Source of the DNA: a virus
Taxonomy: Duplodnaviria; Caudoviricetes
Virus record (IMG/VR): IMGVR_UViG_3300035199_000963
Coordinates: 1 to 55,136 of that record
Reading direction: 5' to 3' (one strand)
DNA: 55,136 nt
Shown: piece by piece, positions 42,510 through 53,539 of the stretch
Position numbering within the stretch: the stretch's first letter is position 1
Layout: each line of letters opens with the position of its first letter
Position numbers and translations under genes: made by a program
The notes under the pieces: model-generated
Seen by the model: only the letters and a program-made list of their open reading frames with translations
The model's database searches: none
Told to the model about the DNA's origin: nothing

Positions 42510-42940
42510 TCTAAAAGCCCCACATAATCACTGCAAATACCAGCCAAACCTTTAAGTGCGGTGGCTTGCGTTTCTTCTGCGGAATGACATACGATAACCG
42601 ATCTCTTGCCTACTGACTTTTCAGGGTAGGTCCAAATATAACCTTTGCTTGTCAAAGTAAAGTCATCGGTCTGGTGCCAGAAACAATGCACGTCGTTTTC
42701 TACCATTCTTTCCAAGGCTTCCCGTGATTTGGCGTGGCACCAAAGTCCAGGCGTCTTTAAGAATTCTATGTCCACTTCGTGCATGGACTCATCATGTCCC
42801 AGATAAAACTTATTATCAATATACCACACATCTATCTCGCTATCATAGCCACCCTTTAGCGCCTCTTGGATATATGCCGGGCTGTTCTCTCGTGTGGGGT
42901 TGCGGCCGTGCGTATTGCCACGATGTGCAATTAAAATCAT
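42506..42940 (-). CDS. small GDPD/PI-PLC-like phosphodiesterase-fold protein
   Basis: 144 aa; LIAHRGN...ENS...GYDSEIDVW...LGHD...ICSDYV. Confidence 0.7.
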   Translation of the reverse strand: MILIAHRGNTHGRNPTRENSPAYIQEALKGGYDSEIDVWYIDNKFYLGHDESMHEVDIEFLKTPGLWCHAKSREALERMVENDVHCFWHQTDDFTLTSKGYIWTYPEKSVGKRSVIVCHSAEETQATALKGLAGICSDYVGLLE

Positions 42941-43971
42941 TTCATCTTCTCCAGAAGTTTATCACCGATATTGTAAACTTTTCCATCCATGGGAATCGAG
43001 GGAGAATGGAGGCGGTTGCGCATTTCTAGTGTTTTGATACTAGAGAATTCTTGAATATGTAAAAACAGCATTCTTTCTAAATTGATGCCGGAGGGAGTAT
43101 TCATCTCCTTGCAGAGAACAGACTCAGAGTTTTCTAATGAATCGTGCATATACTCTAGGAGTCGTGAATATTTAAACATATTTTCTGAGGAAGAGATGGC
43201 AAACTGATCATTACAAATACGTGTGGGGTCGAAATAGTGAACGGTGGTGAGTGACTCTTCATATTGCTGGAGGGGTGTGTCGCATGCCGCGGCTGACTTA
43301 GTTAGAATTGAAAGCTGGTGGGGGTCGTCTTTCATCGCTGCCACCTCCTCTTCTGTGTAGGTGCCTCCATGACCATTCGAACTGGGAACACATATTTGAT
43401 TGGGATCAATATGCTCGACGGGAATGGGATCTAAAAATATGGTATCAGGTCGAACTCGCATTACATAATCATATCTAAAGTTATTTTCTTCCTCAAATCG
43501 CCGACACAATTCATGAGATTTCATAACCGAATAGTATTGACTGTTGTAGGCGGTCGCCGTAGTCGATTGGGGATGTATAAATTTTTCTAAAACAAAGTTT
43601 TCTCGTGTTAGTTCTTTTTCCATTTGATAGTAGATGGGACTACAGGAATCCATAAAATTAACGAAATATGTCTGAAATTTCTCTACAATCTCTGGAGATG
43701 CTTCTGCCGGATATGAGTTAGCTACGGCTTTTGCGTATTTGGTATGCGTCTTGGGGGTTAGATTAGTCGCGTCTGGGTTATGTTCAAGTCTCTTCTTAAG
43801 CCACCCTGACTGTTCTACACTTGTCCAAAAATGAACAAATGAATTTACCTCATAACCCTGTTCTGCAAAAGGTACGATAATATTATTAAGAAAAGTATGT
43901 GTAGCGAAAGGATCGAGCCGTGGCTGACCCGAGAAACAAACCGCCACACGTTTACGTTTAGTCGTCGTCAT
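42937..43971 (-). CDS. putative glycosyltransferase (paralog of 50419-51300)
   Basis: VAVCFSGQPR...SQYYS...YDYVMRVRPD...NDQFAISSSENMFKY; located in the sugar cluster. Confidence 0.5.
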   Translation of the reverse strand: MTTTKRKRVAVCFSGQPRLDPFATHTFLNNIIVPFAEQGYEVNSFVHFWTSVEQSGWLKKRLEHNPDATNLTPKTHTKYAKAVANSYPAEASPEIVEKFQTYFVNFMDSCSPIYYQMEKELTRENFVLEKFIHPQSTTATAYNSQYYSVMKSHELCRRFEEENNFRYDYVMRVRPDTIFLDPIPVEHIDPNQICVPSSNGHGGTYTEEEVAAMKDDPHQLSILTKSAAACDTPLQQYEESLTTVHYFDPTRICNDQFAISSSENMFKYSRLLEYMHDSLENSESVLCKEMNTPSGINLERMLFLHIQEFSSIKTLEMRNRLHSPSIPMDGKVYNIGDKLLEKMK

Positions 43972-46922: not shown

Positions 46923-47729
46923 CTACCCTAAGAACGCTTTGACAAAGTCCGTGTGAGCCTGTTCACCACATTCGTCCATTTGCTCAAAGAAGCTTACGGA
47001 AAGCTCTCGGTTGACTTCGTTGATGAATGGAGAAAACTTGTCGTGAACCAGTTCCTGCTTCCCATAGTGTGTCAGTTGCTCGGCCCCAGTTTCCATAATT
47101 TGGTCCCAAACCCGAGTTCCAATAGTAGGAACAGTCCCTTGGTTGCAGACTCTCTCTAGCCCATCTAGTGTACGCATACTGCCAGCAATGATTTCTGCCC
47201 CGGTATTCTTTCTCTTCTGGGCAAATGTTACATGCGCTGTGGCATCTAGTCCTTTTTCTTCCATGCGACCAGGGATTAGACTCACGTAGCGAACGTTATA
47301 GGTAAAGCAGGATAGGGCTGTAGAACAGTCGGCAACACCCGTGACATTCGTTTCCATATACTTATTAAGATCATCAACAATCTCCAGGACCGGATGATAC
47401 GGAGGAATCTTGAGTCCGAGGCGAGTCGAGCCGTCATTGAATGTGTGGATATATTGCGCCCACCGTAAAATATCGGCTGGATCCATGCCTGACCAGGGCG
47501 CTTGTACATATACAACCCCCTTATCATCTTGGCGGATTGAGGTGACCAACTCGCACAGTTTAGGTAAGTGCCCAGTCCACTGCTCAAGCCTTAGCATATC
47601 CACCTTTTTAAATGCATTTGGGTTGGTGGTTATACCTCGAACGTGTTTGCCGTCGATCGTAGATTGTACCCTATCCCAAACATTTTGTATGTAGCCTATG
47701 TCGGCAGTATCAAAAAAGAAATCAAACAT
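46923..47729 (-). CDS. divergent transaldolase / fructose-6-phosphate aldolase family protein
   Basis: FFDTAD, GITTNP, LKIP (Schiff-base Lys), TNVT, SLIPGR and AGSMR motifs; SD GAGGAG. Confidence 0.78.
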   Translation of the reverse strand: MFDFFFDTADIGYIQNVWDRVQSTIDGKHVRGITTNPNAFKKVDMLRLEQWTGHLPKLCELVTSIRQDDKGVVYVQAPWSGMDPADILRWAQYIHTFNDGSTRLGLKIPPYHPVLEIVDDLNKYMETNVTGVADCSTALSCFTYNVRYVSLIPGRMEEKGLDATAHVTFAQKRKNTGAEIIAGSMRTLDGLERVCNQGTVPTIGTRVWDQIMETGAEQLTHYGKQELVHDKFSPFINEVNRELSVSFFEQMDECGEQAHTDFVKAFLG

Positions 47730-48087
47730 ATTTTTTCTCCTCAGCTTTTAAAAGCGTGTCTTTAACGTTTTTCCAGTTTGTAAATTTTATACCTTTATCG
47801 TCGATAAAAAAATCAACATGCGGTTTACCAAATAATAGTTCATCGTAGGGTACGCGGTATTTGTCTAGCCAATCAATGACCAATTTCCCCTGATTTGCAA
47901 TAACTCTTCCTAGGTTGTTTTCGCACGTCCTCATATTACGCGCAGTGAAGATAACAATATAATAGCCTCTTTGTTTTAAGAACTCAAGCGTATCAATCGC
48001 TCCCTCTAAAGGCTTGACGTCAGCATAACTCTGTCCAGCGGACTTTGTCTCGCAGATTGTCCCATCTAGATCTACACAAATCTTCAC
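47722..48087 (-). CDS. capless HAD phosphatase, EcbF/BcbF capsule-biosynthesis type
   Basis: 121 aa; CVDLDGTIC...IFTARNMRT...WLDKYRVPYDELLFGKP...FIDDK. Confidence 0.8.
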   Translation of the reverse strand: MKICVDLDGTICETKSAGQSYADVKPLEGAIDTLEFLKQRGYYIVIFTARNMRTCENNLGRVIANQGKLVIDWLDKYRVPYDELLFGKPHVDFFIDDKGIKFTNWKNVKDTLLKAEEKKYV

Positions 48088-49034
48088 TGTTGCAATGCCT
48101 CGTTCAGTGTTTTCACGCCAGTCAAATACATGGCGAGTTGTCTATCTTCGCTATCATAGTGCCGGGAACACATCCCTATGTAGATGAGTCCCTCTATCAA
48201 TTTTGACCTTTGATCATGAAAACCTTCAAAGACTTCAGCTATTTTCTCTTTATTATTGTTAGCAAAGGATAAACCAAACTCAGTCAAGGTGGCGTCTTCT
48301 TCGATCTGGAATTGATCATAGATGATGTATTCATAGCCACCATGGTATGAGTGTACCAGCTTCGCATAATCGTACAGTGGATCACCATAAATTCCGTCTT
48401 CACCAAAGTGGCCACGTGGATCCACAAACTTCAAAACGCAAACATTGGTTTTCTGGTTAACTCCACACAATATGTTCGAAAAACACATGTCTCCGTGAAT
48501 GATGGACATCTGTTCTAGTGGAAGCAAGCGGGTGTTGATTTGCTCTTTTACATCCTCCCAGATGTGTTTAAAATTGAGATACTTGACCCCATTAAAAAGC
48601 AAGTGCTCCTTCTCGCTAATCTCTTTAAATTTTGGAAGCTTCAGGAGTTCCTTATAATATCTTTCCGTCTTCTCAATATACATGGCTTCAGCGTAAGGAC
48701 TGTAATCCTTCTGCTTCTTTGAGCCAGCGAATGATTGCAACGTTGAGGATAGTGCTTCAGCTACGCTTAGCCAGAATTGTGGGTTGAAGTCTTGATAGAC
48801 CATGTAGTCGCCCAAGTTATCATATGCGTAGTATTCAAGTTCCATCTGATGTGTTCCGCCATCGAGGGAGGATCCAATAAGTCGCGGGAAATAAACCTCG
48901 TTTGAGTTCCCTTTTATCCCCTGATAATAGGAGATCTCATCATGAAGCCGTTGTTCCTTACTCTTCTTTGTAATTGTTCCTGCTGATGCATTGATTTCAA
49001 ACGAATTATAGGCTCTCGTTATATGCTGCCTCAT
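48084..49034 (-). CDS. APH/choline-kinase-fold sugar kinase (capsule biosynthesis type)
   Basis: IIHGDMCFSNIL (Brenner motif), FVDPRG and GDPLYDYAKL. Confidence 0.75.
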   Translation of the reverse strand: MRQHITRAYNSFEINASAGTITKKSKEQRLHDEISYYQGIKGNSNEVYFPRLIGSSLDGGTHQMELEYYAYDNLGDYMVYQDFNPQFWLSVAEALSSTLQSFAGSKKQKDYSPYAEAMYIEKTERYYKELLKLPKFKEISEKEHLLFNGVKYLNFKHIWEDVKEQINTRLLPLEQMSIIHGDMCFSNILCGVNQKTNVCVLKFVDPRGHFGEDGIYGDPLYDYAKLVHSYHGGYEYIIYDQFQIEEDATLTEFGLSFANNNKEKIAEVFEGFHDQRSKLIEGLIYIGMCSRHYDSEDRQLAMYLTGVKTLNEALQQ

Positions 49035-50403
49035 ATACCTCCTCGATAGAAAGCAGAGTTAAGCCGTGATCAATGGCGAACTTATCTAAGTCGCCACCTT
49101 TTGTCATCGTGCCATCATCATTCATAATCTCACAAATAATTGTGGCCGGCTTCAAGCCAGCTAATTTTACTAGCTCCACAGACCCCTCGGTATGTCCTCG
49201 GCGTTCCTTCAGCAGCCCGGGACGGGCACGGAGCGGGAACAAGTGTCCCGGGCGTGTTAGGTCCGTAGGTACTGCCTCGTCGTCCAGTAAGACGTCTAAG
49301 GTTCGAAGGCGGTCATGGACCGACATGCCGGTTGTGGTGCCCTCAGCGGCGTCCACAGACACAGTAAACGGTGTTTCATTCCTGTCTGTGTTCTCTACTA
49401 CCATAGGGGGGATCTCTAGCCGATCCAGCATTTCCCCTGTCATAGGAACACACATCAGCCCTCTAGCGTGATTCATCGTAAAAACAAGATTATCTACCGA
49501 TGCCATCTCGGCCGCGATTACAATATCTCCCTCATTCTCTCGATCATACTCATCAATAAGAACAACAGGTTTACCCTGACGTAATTCTTCCAGAGCATTC
49601 TGTATTTTTCTACTTTTCAACATGTTTTTCTCCTTGTTTGAATTAGAATCAGTAATAAACTTGTCGACTTTTGAAGACATGGCTTTAATTTCCAGCCACT
49701 TCTTAAAGTCATCCAGATCAGTGGGTGTGTCCATGGACCTCATATCCAATATGTTATAATCACACACGATCTTATTATCGTTAATCGCCTCGTTGAATAC
49801 TGGGGAGATATAGAACTCGCCATTAACGCGGACATCATTCTCAATCATCTTTTTGGCGTAGTGAACAAAATCACTCCCCTTCCTCCAGTAAAAAGCCCCT
49901 GCTAATGCTGTGTCCGAAATTGCTTCCTTCTCGGCGACCTGTACAACGCGCCCCTCGTCGCTAACCTCAGCGTAACTCCAACTACTGTTTCCGGAGTCAT
50001 CTTTAAAGGTGAATAACATGGCATCAAAAACGCCGGTGTTTACCCTGTCTACGAAGGTTTCCGCTTCCCATAAGAAATAGTTATCGCAATTAACGATTAA
50101 GAGTTCATCATCATTGTTTATTTGGGACTCGGCTAAAAGAGCACTGCATGCCTGCCCCTCAGTTACCTCGTCAAGCACAACAATGTCACAATTGGGCACT
50201 ATGTTCCTCAGGGTGACATCCATATGATATTTTTCAATGTGTTCTTTCTGGACTATAAACACATAGTTTCCCTCAATGTTCAGTCCTTCTATGACACGTT
50301 CAATCATCGGTTTGCCCGCGACGTCGATCAAAGGTTTGGGGAGGTTATAACCTACTTCCTTAAATCTCTTACCCTCACCTGCCATCGGTATTAATATATT
50401 CAC
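49006..50403 (-). CDS. ribB: fusion: sugar nucleotidyltransferase + 3,4-dihydroxy-2-butanone-4-phosphate synthase
   Basis: N-terminal ~240 aa: LIPMAGEGKRF...PKPLIDV...DTPTDL. C-terminal ~205 aa: DRENEGD, GLMCVP, FTVSVDA..GTTTGMS..DR, RPGHLFPL, RRGHTE, ICEIMNDDG. Confidence 0.92.
   Translation of the reverse strand: MNILIPMAGEGKRFKEVGYNLPKPLIDVAGKPMIERVIEGLNIEGNYVFIVQKEHIEKYHMDVTLRNIVPNCDIVVLDEVTEGQACSALLAESQINNDDELLIVNCDNYFLWEAETFVDRVNTGVFDAMLFTFKDDSGNSSWSYAEVSDEGRVVQVAEKEAISDTALAGAFYWRKGSDFVHYAKKMIENDVRVNGEFYISPVFNEAINDNKIVCDYNILDMRSMDTPTDLDDFKKWLEIKAMSSKVDKFITDSNSNKEKNMLKSRKIQNALEELRQGKPVVLIDEYDRENEGDIVIAAEMASVDNLVFTMNHARGLMCVPMTGEMLDRLEIPPMVVENTDRNETPFTVSVDAAEGTTTGMSVHDRLRTLDVLLDDEAVPTDLTRPGHLFPLRARPGLLKERRGHTEGSVELVKLAGLKPATIICEIMNDDGTMTKGGDLDKFAIDHGLTLLSIEEVYEAAYNESL
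49621..49635 (-). promoter_or_regulatory. internal in-frame ribosome-binding site and ATG at the start of the RibB domain
   Basis: Minus strand AAGGAGaaaaacATG. The same AGGAGAAAAA signature precedes the starts at 50403, 47729 and 41545. Confidence 0.65.
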
Positions 50404-50418
50404 TGCGTTTTTCTCCTT

Positions 50419-51300
50419 TTATTCCCAATCGGCGTGCAACGCGGCCGCCTTCTTCCACAATCCTGTATCCATCAAAAACCACTTCATCAACAAAATGCCG
50501 TTAACTGTCAAGAAAGGGGGATACCGGTGGAGATCCTTTGATCTCTCTTCTGGTGTTTTGAGCACCTCGTTGGTACGATATTGATCACGGCACGATTCTG
50601 GCCAGCCTGTGGTGGCAGCAGCCGAATAGTCACTTTCTGCTGGCAAATATTCTTTTAGCACCTTATCATAAACATGACAAAAGTGGTCCATATTTTCCGA
50701 ACTCGAATAAAACCACATGTCGGCTGGTCCCTCATTGAACAGATCCCAATACACCATGTAAAGTTGGTTCATATCCAGGCTAGGATCAAAATTAATGCAT
50801 TGGCATGCAAATGGGTTCTGCTTTCCTGGGCCGCTGGTTGCTCGGTTTATGCGCCCTAAGTCGAAACGAGCCTTAATAGCACAATCATAGGTAAAGCCAT
50901 GTTCTTCCTCATATTGCTTCTTAAGCTCAAAAGACTTCTGAGTCGAATAATATTGACTCAGCAGCCTCTCAGGACCCACATAGCCAGCGCCGTGTTTGGA
51001 TGTCATAGACCAGCTACCTAATTGTCCGTAGGGGTCCAAATCCTTTCGACTAACGTTATGTGCTTCGGCAACTTTTACAAAATCAATCTGTTCTTCCACC
51101 ATATATGATTTAGGCTGATATAGCTGCGCAACCTCCTCTTCGAGGTGCGGCTCCCAGTTGTGGTAAAATATATCTACCTCACAGTCATCTGTCGCCAGGT
51201 CGAGGATATGCTTCTTGATGTAAGCATGACCGTCGTGACCTCTTGACGTAGTATCTTTCAGTGAATCAAAGTATCCGGATAGACACAAAGCAATCTTCAT
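50419..51300 (-). CDS. putative glycosyltransferase (paralog of 42937-43971)
   Basis: KIALCLSG...SQYYS...YDCAIKARFD...ADMWFYSSSENMDHF. Confidence 0.5.
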   Translation of the reverse strand: MKIALCLSGYFDSLKDTTSRGHDGHAYIKKHILDLATDDCEVDIFYHNWEPHLEEEVAQLYQPKSYMVEEQIDFVKVAEAHNVSRKDLDPYGQLGSWSMTSKHGAGYVGPERLLSQYYSTQKSFELKKQYEEEHGFTYDCAIKARFDLGRINRATSGPGKQNPFACQCINFDPSLDMNQLYMVYWDLFNEGPADMWFYSSSENMDHFCHVYDKVLKEYLPAESDYSAAATTGWPESCRDQYRTNEVLKTPEERSKDLHRYPPFLTVNGILLMKWFLMDTGLWKKAAALHADWE

Positions 51301-51351: not shown

Positions 51352-51981
51352 TTATTCGCTAATCACTGGTATCTTTTTAAAGATATCAAACTCTGTCAAA
51401 TCACGATACGGTGGTTCTTCCGGCAAATCTTCTACATGTTCAGGGTAGTTCTGCATTAACATCAAGCCACGGCAGGCTTCCTCTGGGCTCATATACATAT
51501 TCCATCCCTCCTCAACAATATTATCTTCATGATAGGGTACGGTGCCACGGCCTTCGTATCTAGCTTTCTTATACCAATCCACAGCCTCCTTACTGTCGGT
51601 TAAGATCATACCACCCTTTCCAATCTTAAGATGTTTCTTAATATGAAAACTCAAGCACATGGTACTTTGAGGGATGTACATCTCTGAGGTGAGCCTCTTG
51701 GCTGCATCATAAATGGGGAATGGCTTAAGCTGGTATACCCCCTTCCATGCGATGTCTTCAAACTCTAGCTTGCCTCCAGCCTGCAAAATAGACTGCGGTG
51801 GGGAGAGGTAGGTTCTTTTTGGAATTATGACCTCCCTTCCCTCTATCTTGTGGTATTTGCACGCCAAAAAGATAGCGTTTGTACAGCTATTAACTGATAC
51901 TGCATAGGGCGCGCCGGTGTAGTGGGCGATCTCCTCCTCAAACATTTGAACTATCTTGTAGGGGTTATGAAGCATAAGCAT
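51352..51981 (-). CDS. short DegT/DnrJ/EryC1/StrS PLP-dependent sugar aminotransferase
   Basis: FEEEIAHYTGAPYAVSVNSCTNAI, YDAA, SFHIKKHLKIGKGGMILTD and GWNMYMS motifs. Likely start ATG 51981 or 51975 (about 208 aa). Confidence 0.8.
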   Translation of the reverse strand: MLMLHNPYKIVQMFEEEIAHYTGAPYAVSVNSCTNAIFLACKYHKIEGREVIIPKRTYLSPPQSILQAGGKLEFEDIAWKGVYQLKPFPIYDAAKRLTSEMYIPQSTMCLSFHIKKHLKIGKGGMILTDSKEAVDWYKKARYEGRGTVPYHEDNIVEEGWNMYMSPEEACRGLMLMQNYPEHVEDLPEEPPYRDLTEFDIFKKIPVISE

Positions 51982-53539
51982 TTGCCTCCCACTTGTGTAT
52001 GACGCAGAATATATTATGCTCTTCTGCCAGTTCATCAAGTGAGTGGGATGCTTTTATGACTTCGGATTCATTTCCAAAGTCAATAGGTGCGTAATCGCCC
52101 TGGAAGAGCTCTACGGAAGCTTTGCCTAGTCCAATCAGGTGATGTGTTTTCTTTATTTTCTTAAGCAATTGCATTTTGCGTGGTTGACCATAAAAAGTAT
52201 GAATTTCCATGGCAATGAGATCGATTTTGTCATATTCATCAAAATTTTCAAAAATCTCATACTCGCTTCCCTCGCAATCAACCTTGAGGTAGCTAATCCT
52301 ATCTTCGCCAGTGAGGGTAAAAATATCTTTCAATGAGATCGTTTGGCATGTCTCACCAATATCTACAAAGGATTCATTCTCGAAATCTGCACAAGTGATA
52401 TCTTTACTATGGTGGTCGTCGTGTACTCGAAGCTGTAGGGTGTCGCCGCTTTCCCCGGTTACAGCTTTTTGTATTATTTCTACATTATCAATCTTCAACT
52501 CTTCAAGCAGTCCTCTCATAATATCGCAATGTTCCTCTAGAGGCTCAAATGCATATATTTTTTTGAATACAGAATGAGCATATGCCGGAAACCCTCCCAC
52601 GTTGGCCCCGATATCAATAGCAACTCCCTGTGGGGTCTTTGACACAGGATAACTAGCCGCGCACTCCTTCAGACTATCGGTCAGCCATTCATATATTGCG
52701 TGGTGCGAAGATAAGTTGGGGAACTTAGTACTAAGGACTTGGTGGGCGCTGCGGGACGCCCACTGGGCGCTGCTCATTGTAGTATCCACTCTTTTTACGC
52801 CAGGGCGCTTAAGATATTCTTTAAAGCGCTTATTTAGAGCGAACACATTCTCAAGATCCTGCAGTTCTTCTTGCTTTCCATTTAAACAGTATTCGGTCAT
52901 GTCCGCATCGAGGCTTAAAAGCCCGCGGGCGAGGGGAATCAAATAGAACTCGTCGCCTAATCTCTCCAAGAGCGCCAATTTGCGCTCTGGTGAGTAATAC
53001 CCATGAACCTCCATGGCAAGAAATAGCACCTTATCAAAGTTCTGAAAATTCTCCAATATCTCGTACTCGCTTCCCTCACAGTCCATCTTTAAATAATGTA
53101 TCATATCGAGGTCAAGTCGTTCTAAAATATGGTCCAGACTAATCGTTTCGCACGTCTGTCCTATTTGTGTGAAATCATGTTCCGGAAGATCTAAACAAGT
53201 GACGCCTCCTGAGGAGCCGCAGGAGCCTAACTGCAGAGGAATATTCTTGCCACTTTCAGAGTGAACTGCCATGTTATAGATTTCAACATTAGAAATACCG
53301 GCCGCCTCCAGCACTTGCATAGCTACGTGATAGTTTTCCACCACCGGTTCAAAGGCATAGATTTTGTCGAAATGCTTGTGGGCGATCACGCAGAATCCAC
53401 CCACGTTCGCTCCTATATCTACCGCAGTTGGCAGAACTACGTTAGGCATAAGAGGATAAGAAGACTTGCATTCGGCAATAATCTCATTGATGTACCCGTT
53501 TAACGCCTCATCAGATTTGAAATTTTTAAACTTTTTCAT
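51965..53539 (-). CDS. tandem two-domain FkbM-family methyltransferase
   Basis: Two copies of (V/I)DIGANVGGF...IYAFEP...TISL...YLK(M/V)DCEGSEYEI...AME(V/I)H. Confidence 0.88.
   Translation of the reverse strand: MKKFKNFKSDEALNGYINEIIAECKSSYPLMPNVVLPTAVDIGANVGGFCVIAHKHFDKIYAFEPVVENYHVAMQVLEAAGISNVEIYNMAVHSESGKNIPLQLGSCGSSGGVTCLDLPEHDFTQIGQTCETISLDHILERLDLDMIHYLKMDCEGSEYEILENFQNFDKVLFLAMEVHGYYSPERKLALLERLGDEFYLIPLARGLLSLDADMTEYCLNGKQEELQDLENVFALNKRFKEYLKRPGVKRVDTTMSSAQWASRSAHQVLSTKFPNLSSHHAIYEWLTDSLKECAASYPVSKTPQGVAIDIGANVGGFPAYAHSVFKKIYAFEPLEEHCDIMRGLLEELKIDNVEIIQKAVTGESGDTLQLRVHDDHHSKDITCADFENESFVDIGETCQTISLKDIFTLTGEDRISYLKVDCEGSEYEIFENFDEYDKIDLIAMEIHTFYGQPRKMQLLKKIKKTHHLIGLGKASVELFQGDYAPIDFGNESEVIKASHSLDELAEEHNIFCVIHKWEANAYAS

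Follow-up and report, generated by a model that had tools for sequence, protein, structure and literature searches.

The window analysed here is the whole stretch of 55,136 bases of IMG/VR virus record IMGVR_UViG_3300035199_000963, a viral contig classed as linear and about 37% complete, in which the minus strand carries nearly all long open reading frames (ORFs). One of these ORFs encodes a protein of 465 amino acids (aa) in which a nucleotidyltransferase (NT) of the RmlA-like sugar-phosphate type is joined by a linker to RibB, the 3,4-dihydroxy-2-butanone-4-phosphate (DHBP) synthase. It is followed by genes for an APH-fold kinase, a small HAD phosphatase and a divergent transaldolase-like aldolase (TAL-like protein), and the group lies within a larger glycan-synthesis cluster. 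Inside the fused frame, at the boundary between linker and RibB, an in-frame ATG (the codon of M261) stands behind a Shine-Dalgarno (SD) sequence of its own, from which RibB could be read as a nested gene. The features are collected in Table 1; all positions are those of the window.

Table 1. Features of the fused NT-RibB gene, its module partners and other parts of the window
Feature	Position	Strand	Remarks
Full-length fused gene, 465 aa (NT, linker, RibB)	49006-50403	(-)	GTG start 50403-50401, stop 49006-49008
SD AAGGAG of the full-length gene	50413-50418	(-)	9 nt before GTG 50403
NT domain, residues ~1-239, RmlA-like sugar-phosphate NT fold	49687-50403	(-)	
Linker, residues 240-260, KAMSSKVDKFITDSNSNKEKN	49624-49686	(-)	sequence and length variable among relatives
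Internal SD AAGGAG, in-frame K-E	49630-49635	(-)	6 nt before the internal ATG
Internal start ATG (M261)	49621-49623	(-)	linker/RibB boundary
RibB domain, proposed nested in-frame gene, 205 aa, M261-L465	49006-49623	(-)	
APH-fold kinase, 316 aa	48084-49034	(-)	ATG 49034 overlaps the RibB 3' end by 29 nt, behind GGAGG
Small HAD phosphatase, 121 aa, EcbF/BcbF capsule-phosphatase type	47722-48087	(-)	
Divergent transaldolase/FSA-like class I aldolase (TAL-like), 268 aa	46923-47729	(-)	PF00923, E 2.7e-8
Conserved upstream neighbour, 293 aa, DUF7796/phrog_13607	50419-51300	(-)	
Second DUF7796/phrog_13607 protein	42937-43971	(-)	paralogue of 50419-51300
Glycan-synthesis cluster	~41.5-54.7 kb		
Giant ORF, 4,477 aa	12269-25702	(-)	adjoins baseplate-wedge homologues; presumably tail/fibre protein
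Giant ORF, 2,472 aa	29486-36904	(-)	adjoins baseplate-wedge homologues; presumably tail/fibre protein
Giant ORF, 1,549 aa	6623-11272	(-)	adjoins baseplate-wedge homologues; presumably tail/fibre protein

An earlier sequence-only reading of this DNA had described a single open NT-RibB frame with a linker and with intact RibB catalytic motifs, and both descriptions were borne out. Pfam matched NTP_transferase (PF00483) at residues 8-190 (E 3.2e-10; 40.4 bits, cut-off 21.2) and DHBP_synthase (PF00926) at residues 269-458 (E 3.6e-73; 245.6 bits, cut-off 26.4). The RibB part passed the equivalog-domain cut-off of TIGR00506 ribB (218.8 against 177.45) and aligned with the RibB of V. cholerae over 193 residues (E 5.9e-56) with all classical motifs present (DRENEGD, GLMC, TTGMS, RPGHLFPLRA, RRGHTEG and CEI); RibBA models matched this part alone and far under their cut-offs (e.g. 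NF006803, 244.9 against 569). For the NT no NCBIfam equivalog reached its cut-off, the best being Arch_glmU (52 against 292), and among PDB sequences the match was to 4evw (E 4.8e-12). In Foldseek searches the NT domain was closest to 4evw (target template-modelling score, TMt, 0.84), followed by the RmlA-type thymidylyltransferases 4ho9 and 1iim, and the RibB domain matched 3ls6, 3lqu, 3lrj and 3h07 at TMt 0.92-0.94 and 40-44% identity.

Residue conservation was compared in 62 fused proteins. In the NT signature G-x-G-x-R...K, residues G9, K23 and P24 were invariant and G11 and R13 at least 90% conserved; in RibB, residues D287, R288, E289, E291, D293, C318, H387, H404, T405, E406 and E425 were invariant. 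When 92 viral RibBs were set beside 75 cellular ones (a sample skewed to Burkholderia-type genomes), R288, E289, E291, D293, C318, T344, S349, T358, G359, D364, R365, H387, R401, H404, T405, E406 and E425 were at least 90% the same in both sets. The conserved RibB residues are presumably the catalytic, metal, substrate and ligand positions. Score, motifs and predicted fold agree in assigning the C-terminal part to RibB, as do score, signature and predicted fold in assigning the N-terminal part to the RmlA-like sugar-phosphate NTs. An AlphaFold2 model made with the 62 homologues had a mean predicted local distance difference test score (pLDDT) of 88.4 and a predicted template-modelling score (pTM) of 0.56, with both domains confident. 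Its sole segment under pLDDT 50 was 243-262, matching a disordered linker of ~20 aa with M261 near its end, and its first RibB helix spanned 259-275, so that M261 is taken as the start of the RibB domain.

Independent contigs were sought in four runs (X2, X3, X4 and X9), of which X3 and X4, from other studies, yielded contigs covering the linker: record 9 of X3 covers the whole stretch, and record 20 of X4 covers 49574-50481. Both kept the ORF, the linker and the internal SD and ATG, with no indel within the ORF and no difference in 49574-49809, and the frame is on this ground not an assembly artefact; the stop or frameshift in the linker that the sequence-only reading had proposed to look for was not found in these assembled contigs. 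Both carry a 1-nt T insertion behind 50407, which alters the spacer between the SD and GTG of the full-length gene and leaves the ORF untouched. Natural variant sites were synonymous in 19 of 21 cases, which indicates purifying selection on both domains.

The same frame was found well beyond these contigs. In a search of 5.8 billion proteins, 117 of the best 120 clusters, with identities of 39-98%, covered at least 99% of the query. DHBP_synthase and NTP-transferase Pfam matches occurred together in 104 of the 120. After clustering at 50% identity, three representatives matched over the full length (P0045, P0060 and P0121), and phrog_3980 (function unknown) matched residues 1-461. The explanation that the fusion is an artefact of assembly or sequencing, or a very recent stop-codon loss in one contig, could draw on close split forms in nature, some parted only by in-frame stops (L109 and L163). 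It is hardly credible, since the X3 and X4 contigs keep the frame, the same 465-aa frame recurs in P0001, a cluster at 98% identity with 9 member sequences and 3 contigs, and in a 99%-identical metagenome contig (L130), and 34 distinct fused ORFs of the window's linker-bearing type are open across linkers of variable length. The recent origin by stop-codon loss that had been offered as one alternative in the sequence-only reading fails likewise, for the frame is kept down to 39% identity, and within the window's own clade aa identity is 52-81% with four-fold degenerate sites at chance.

When cellular genomes were scanned with the fusion alignment, the best 80 loci matched the RibB part alone (query 247-267 onward) and were ordinary ribB or ribBA genes; the scan used RibB-motif patterns and is no proof that the fusion is absent from cells. 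No paper on an NT-RibB fusion was found in the literature searched. Among the matches listed, all papers on DHBP synthase and phages dealt with riboflavin, and none on Synechococcus phage S-SKS1 was by title about its NT-RibB gene. The architecture, unfamiliar to the sequence-only reading, is already present in databases, as phrog_3980 and in S-SKS1; that reading had also raised the prospect that it would turn out common and already characterised, and the first half of this applies to marine viral metagenomes and the second does not. The fusion is genuine, long maintained and common in marine viral metagenomes, yet uncharacterised and probably mis-annotated.

Viral and metagenomic loci were collected by tblastn and ORF inspection, giving 71 distinct sequences that span the junction, four of them broken by in-frame stops (L109, L163, L165 and L167). 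NT and RibB were also found adjacent in different frames (L118/L197, L123, L191, L193, L195, L205/L207, L206 and L209), as separate genes in the order NT, methyltransferase, RibB (L017/18), and with RibB standing alone before the kinase and the NT further on (L008-L016, L121 and L204). In split pairs the RibB matches started near query residues 257-271, bracketing M261, and candidate RibB starts of split relatives lay a few codons before the domain; a strong SD was present at only a minority of split or standalone viral ribB starts.

A quick maximum-likelihood tree was built from 104 RibB domains, 92 of them viral or metagenomic and 12 taken from 76 distinct cellular sequences, with identical sequences merged (the window being represented by L130) and with support from the Shimodaira-Hasegawa-like approximate likelihood ratio test (SH-aLRT) only. 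Every viral sequence fell into a single clade (99*), from which 11 of the 12 cellular RibBs were separate. The fused clade of linker type to which the window belongs (36 rows) was sister to a split-adjacent clade (95*), and an S-SKS1-type fused clade (23 rows, 100*) and an L110-type fused clade (100*) lay elsewhere, among split and standalone forms. The label "fused" changed 11 times on the tree, at least 8 of these changes being forced by starred branches, a count that is inflated by cut and short contigs. We read the tree as at least three fusion events, or else many fissions, and the three different junction architectures agree with this reading; these comparisons broadly support an origin by the joining of neighbouring NT and ribB genes. 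Contig L019, from a metagenome-assembled genome (MAG) labelled Woesearchaeota, fell inside the viral clade with a RibB 59% identical to that of the window; this contig of 8 kb may be of viral origin and have been binned with the MAG.

The sequence-only reading had drawn attention to a ribosome-binding site (RBS) at the RibB boundary that was nearly identical to the gene's own. This was confirmed: AAGGAG stands at both, and the 12-mer AAGGAGAAAAAC occurs in exactly two copies in the window on both strands, before the GTG start and before M261. The internal AAGGAG core is as strong as that of any gene start in the window, where cores of at least 5 nt were found at 8 of 34 ORFs and cores of 4 nt at 9 more, showing that the phage uses SD-led starts.

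Conservation of the internal site was assessed in the 34 distinct linker-type ORFs, near-duplicates included (the window's own sequence, WIN, and L130; L132, L133 and L134), with a strong SD defined as AAGGA, AGGAG or GGAGG lying 5-8 nt before an in-frame ATG or GTG. SD and start stood together at the boundary in 23 of the 34, against 5 of 617 other in-frame ATG or GTG codons in the same ORFs; the SD background over all codon positions was 196 of 14,764, and 1.4% of shuffled linkers had an SD with a start. Within the 150 nt ahead of the conserved GKP anchor, motif occurrences fell at a single position in 28 of 35 cases. An ATG or GTG was present at the M261 site in 30 of 34 ORFs, and the ORFs fell into classes with both elements (23), SD only (0), start only (7) and neither (4). 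Where the residue at the site is Val (L137 and L139), both codons are GTG. Three codon phases are used for the motif: AAG GAx (K-E, K-D), AAA GGA (K-G) and CAG GAG GGA (Q-E-G). An information profile anchored on the start was computed from 28 sequences, leaving out the near-duplicates L130 and L134 and the sequences with no start codon (L153, L155, L189 and L160); it peaked at -12 to -8 and at the ATG, the rest of the linker holding ~0.1-0.5 bit per position. In 14 SD-bearing ORFs identity at four-fold degenerate sites was 0.31, against 0.29 expected by chance, at an amino-acid identity of 0.52-0.81. Neutral sequence has therefore been randomised across the clade and the RBS has not, and the saturation of four-fold sites together with the three codon phases argues that the internal RBS is selected. 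The comparison points to an SD and start kept by selection beyond neutral expectation.

These figures bear on two other explanations of the site. It could be an unused relic of the ancestral ribB start, carried over when adjacent NT and ribB genes fused, with only the 465-aa protein made; the RibB matches of split relatives, which begin around M261 (257-271), would suit this, as would the loss of the SD in 11 of 34 linker-type ORFs (in 4 of them with the start) and the absence of both elements from two other fused clades. A relic is unlikely all the same, since it would not be expected to persist as SD and start in 23 of 34 ORFs whose synonymous sites are saturated and whose neighbouring linker positions are randomised, to be rewritten in three codon phases with replacement of ATG by GTG, or to carry a strong SD more commonly than split and standalone viral ribB starts do. 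The SD-like motif could also act as an elongation pause that lets the NT fold before RibB emerges, rather than in initiation. SD-like sequences have been proposed as pause sites, and the motif does lie in the linker directly after the NT domain; yet a pause needs no start codon, and an ATG or GTG follows 5-8 nt downstream in 23 of 23 cases, the Val residue is always GTG, and the spacing is that of the initiation sites of the window. A pause is accordingly the more improbable of the two.

Initiation of ribosomes at M261, which would give a nested 205-aa RibB beside the fusion, is considered likely. Several points weigh against it. Eleven of the 34 linker-type ORFs are without the SD and 4 of these also without a start codon, and the S-SKS1-type and L110-type fused clades have no conserved internal start, so that some lineages could do without free RibB. 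Because they are related, with near-duplicates among them, the 34 ORFs do not count as independent events. At the site, mRNA accessibility was predicted to be high (mean percentile 0.90), a measure that does not discriminate, because it was nearly as high in fusions without the SD (0.82). The sole contig from an RNA library (X9) spans 48959-49546 and is uninformative on starts, transcription and transcript ends. Two-product translation, the other alternative of the sequence-only reading, is thus supported by comparison, through an island of SD and start conservation in a hypervariable linker, written in three phases and with GTG for Val, while the short product itself is predicted from the DNA.

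The genes following the fusion were traced by tblastn of the cluster proteins against all loci. At nearly every locus with enough flank the order was fixed, the kinase following RibB at about +590 nt, the small HAD at about +1540 and the TAL-like gene at about +1900; the NT either formed one protein with RibB, lay beside it or came after the kinase. The kinase has the catalytic loop HGDxxxxN. In the Atlas its structure matched, at a template-modelling score (TM) of 0.92, the kinase half of bacterial proteins of ~545 aa with NTP_transferase and APH domains, some of which are named capsular biosynthesis proteins; its profile found among PDB sequences only catalytic-loop matches to protein kinases (E at least 0.0085). 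Of 401 genomes sampled from one bacterial phylum, 21 had kinase homologues, in every case within an open frame of 519-613 aa. The small HAD matched TIGR01689 (E 8.6e-25, below the cut-off) and weakly resembled GmhB (E 0.0033). The profile of the TAL-like protein matched the transaldolases of T. acidophilum and B. subtilis (2.6e-11 to 4.2e-11), the Schiff-base Lys (LKIP) being in register. The protein has an invariant Gln, Q76, at what we take to be the position of the catalytic Glu of transaldolases, and its best PDB sequence match was 4xz9, which bears Gln there, ahead of other T. acidophilum transaldolase entries; Q76 hints at aldolase-type rather than transaldolase-type chemistry.

Small HAD, NT and kinase were adjacent in all six bacterial loci fetched, and a RibB or TAL homologue was found near this triad in none of the six. 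One bacterial cassette (L223:5790-10311, from G054) consists of a GT61-like glycosyltransferase, the small HAD, an NT and a 537-aa NT-APH kinase fusion, and so holds two NT domains; a RibB or TAL homologue was not found nearby. In the linker-type clade the C-terminal tail of RibB, IEEVYEAAYNESL, is strongly conserved, perhaps because the stretch 49006-49034 codes both for this tail and for the N-terminus of the kinase and also holds the kinase SD.

To our knowledge DHBP synthase is known only as an enzyme of the riboflavin pathway, and the gene might be an auxiliary metabolic gene that raises host riboflavin, FMN and FAD, the NT fusion being incidental. RibB is canonical by score, with the equivalog cut-off passed and the active-site motifs kept, and a free RibB from the internal start would suit such a role. 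GTP cyclohydrolase II (PF00925) and lumazine synthase (PF00885) were, however, found in none of three records, namely the window, a 159-kb relative, G001 (90% complete), and the complete S-SKS1 genome, in a search whose controls were positive in 10 and 14 of 14; RibB does not co-occur here with the genes of a riboflavin operon. In nearly all loci, moreover, it is syntenic with the kinase, small HAD and TAL-like genes and either fused to the NT or next to it, inside glycan clusters, and the viral RibBs form the one clade apart from 11 of 12 sampled cellular RibBs, L019 lying inside it. A riboflavin role is judged about as unlikely as the relic start. The kinase, HAD phosphatase and NT genes are co-located across genomes, as the comparison of loci indicates, and it is held with moderate confidence that RibB supplies a unit derived from ribulose-5-phosphate to activation by kinase, phosphatase and NT, and not to flavin synthesis.

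A mechanism can be outlined on this basis. Judged by length, one gene would give products of ~52 and ~23 kDa, and RibB would be made in excess over NT. RibB would convert ribulose-5-phosphate to DHBP, and the other four enzymes, in an order and to a product that are both conjectural, would turn DHBP or a chain-extended derivative of it into a nucleotide-activated donor for glycan decoration. The account as a whole, of an old bifunctional NT-RibB protein, a nested RibB and a five-enzyme module for an activated glycan donor, appears fairly probable.

The chemistry and the bacterial loci weigh against it. DHBP lacks an aldehyde and is unable to close into a sugar ring, so that its use by a transaldolase-type enzyme and by an NT of RmlA fold is chemically unexplained; because it cannot cyclise, one has to suppose either that the aldolase extends or branches the chain or that an open-chain keto-alcohol phosphate is activated. 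The bacterial loci, having no RibB or TAL homologue near the triad, offer neither precedent nor clue for the RibB/TAL step. The viral RibBs also carry clade-specific changes beside conserved motifs (P345, M360, V362, L397 and L398), and their substrate may be an altered one. Use of DHBP with a transaldolase-type enzyme as C3 donor, C1 donor or ketone acceptor was considered, and no data supported any of the three. Only tentatively can a more specific scheme be put forward, in which RibB was recruited from riboflavin synthesis and, with the Gln-bearing TAL-like aldolase, builds either an undescribed sugar, deoxy or branched, or a C4 keto-alcohol phosphate, and the triad makes of it a new donor decorating a host-surface or virion glycan. 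RibB turnover is low; in this tentative scheme RibB would be the slow step, and for that reason the nested RibB would set the ratio of RibB to NT.

The C-terminal 200 aa of the fusion resemble RibB, RibBA and RibBX, with curated cut-offs passed and motifs and fold kept; the arrangement differs from RibBA in that an NT precedes RibB and the partner is not GTP cyclohydrolase II. The nearest named counterpart is SWZG_00042 of S-SKS1, annotated only as "3,4-dihydroxy-2-butanone 4-phosphate synthase", which is 39.5% identical over 100% of the query, has the same NT-RibB architecture and is followed by kinase, small HAD and transaldolase genes. It differs in being a tight fusion (475 aa) that lacks both a linker and a conserved internal SD or start, and in belonging to a separate clade of the RibB tree. 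A cultured phage with the linker type was not encountered in the collections searched. Nested in-frame phage genes expressed by internal initiation are familiar from T7 gene 4A/4B and phiX174 A/A*, where, as proposed here, an SD and start inside a longer ORF yield the C-terminal domain as a second product; the short product predicted for the window is by contrast a complete metabolic enzyme domain that is a separate gene in sister lineages.

Kinase, phosphatase and NT act together in known routes to NDP-sugars, such as the GmhA/HddA/GmhB/HddC heptose pathway, and kinase-NT pairs are known in LicA/LicC and AmgK/MurU. The APH-fold kinase, small HAD and RmlA-fold NT of the module resemble these, the bacterial triad being often an NT-kinase fusion; the module differs in that RibB and a TAL-like aldolase would feed the triad, for which we know of no precedent. 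For the activation of an open-chain ketose phosphate, the reaction of a cytidylyltransferase from C. jejuni HS5.18 is a precedent, in which CTP and fructose-6-phosphate give CDP-6-fructose (PMC10918830); an NT that likewise activates the terminal phosphate of a keto-sugar phosphate could use DHBP directly. The C. jejuni pathway differs in pairing the NT with a reductase, no kinase or phosphatase being needed.

The point of most interest, in our view, is the part of DHBP synthase in a nucleotide-sugar module. The enzyme is locked here in a five-enzyme module of nucleotide-sugar type, which marine phages carry widely both as three fused clades and in many split forms, and the plain annotation "DHBP synthase", with the counting of such genes as riboflavin auxiliary metabolic genes, is probably misleading. 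Should the module indeed make an activated donor derived from DHBP, it would represent new carbohydrate biochemistry and a new phage-encoded glycan modification in the ocean. The relatives also form a natural series of gene fusion, from separate genes through genes parted by stops and a loose fusion with a selected internal start to tight fusions, in which the loose form suggests that a fusion can retain the option of making one partner alone.

The cluster surrounding the module encodes, besides the two DUF7796 proteins, a nucleotide-sugar epimerase/dehydratase, a sulfotransferase-like protein, a second nucleotidyltransferase, a HAD of beta-phosphoglucomutase type, a DegT-like fragment, a double FkbM methyltransferase and a GNAT acetyltransferase. 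The AlphaFold2 model of the 293-aa DUF7796 protein had a pLDDT of 81, and nearly all Foldseek matches listed for it were GT-A enzymes, although weak (TM 0.3-0.4, best E 4.8e-4); its Atlas matches were viral hypothetical clusters only. As a lead, the protein may be a divergent GT-A glycosyltransferase. The DegT-type aminotransferase ORF at 51352-52038(-) has just 228 aa, against profiles of about 360-380 positions, and overlaps the end of the double FkbM methyltransferase gene at 51965-53539(-) by 74 nt; a better-placed start, ATG 51975 behind GGAGG, would make it still shorter, and the ORF may be a fragment or a miscalled gene.

The window also encodes an endolysin-like protein, in addition to the giant ORFs of Table 1. 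The nearest cultured relatives of the baseplate protein were in a Microcystis phage and Flavobacterium phages, at ~32% identity. A search for hli (PF00504) missed even S-SKS1, where hli is annotated, and is thus insensitive as a clue to the host; a search for tRNA genes found none.

Other fusions of related NTs were encountered among the loci and clusters. In L017:8912-10021 and in L018, the small HAD phosphatase forms one protein of ~370 aa with a second NT paralogue, in the order NT-small HAD. Members of this NT family are also fused in two cyanomyophages, to HAD_2 (HAD_2-NT) in S-CAM9 gp067 (L099:6341-7726) and to RpiB (ribose-5-phosphate isomerase B type; NT-RpiB) in SynMITS9220M01_192 (L100:5992-7149), the latter annotated "phosphatase". 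Among the representatives listed at 50% identity there are many proteins of 440-470 aa in which the NT occupies the C-terminal half.

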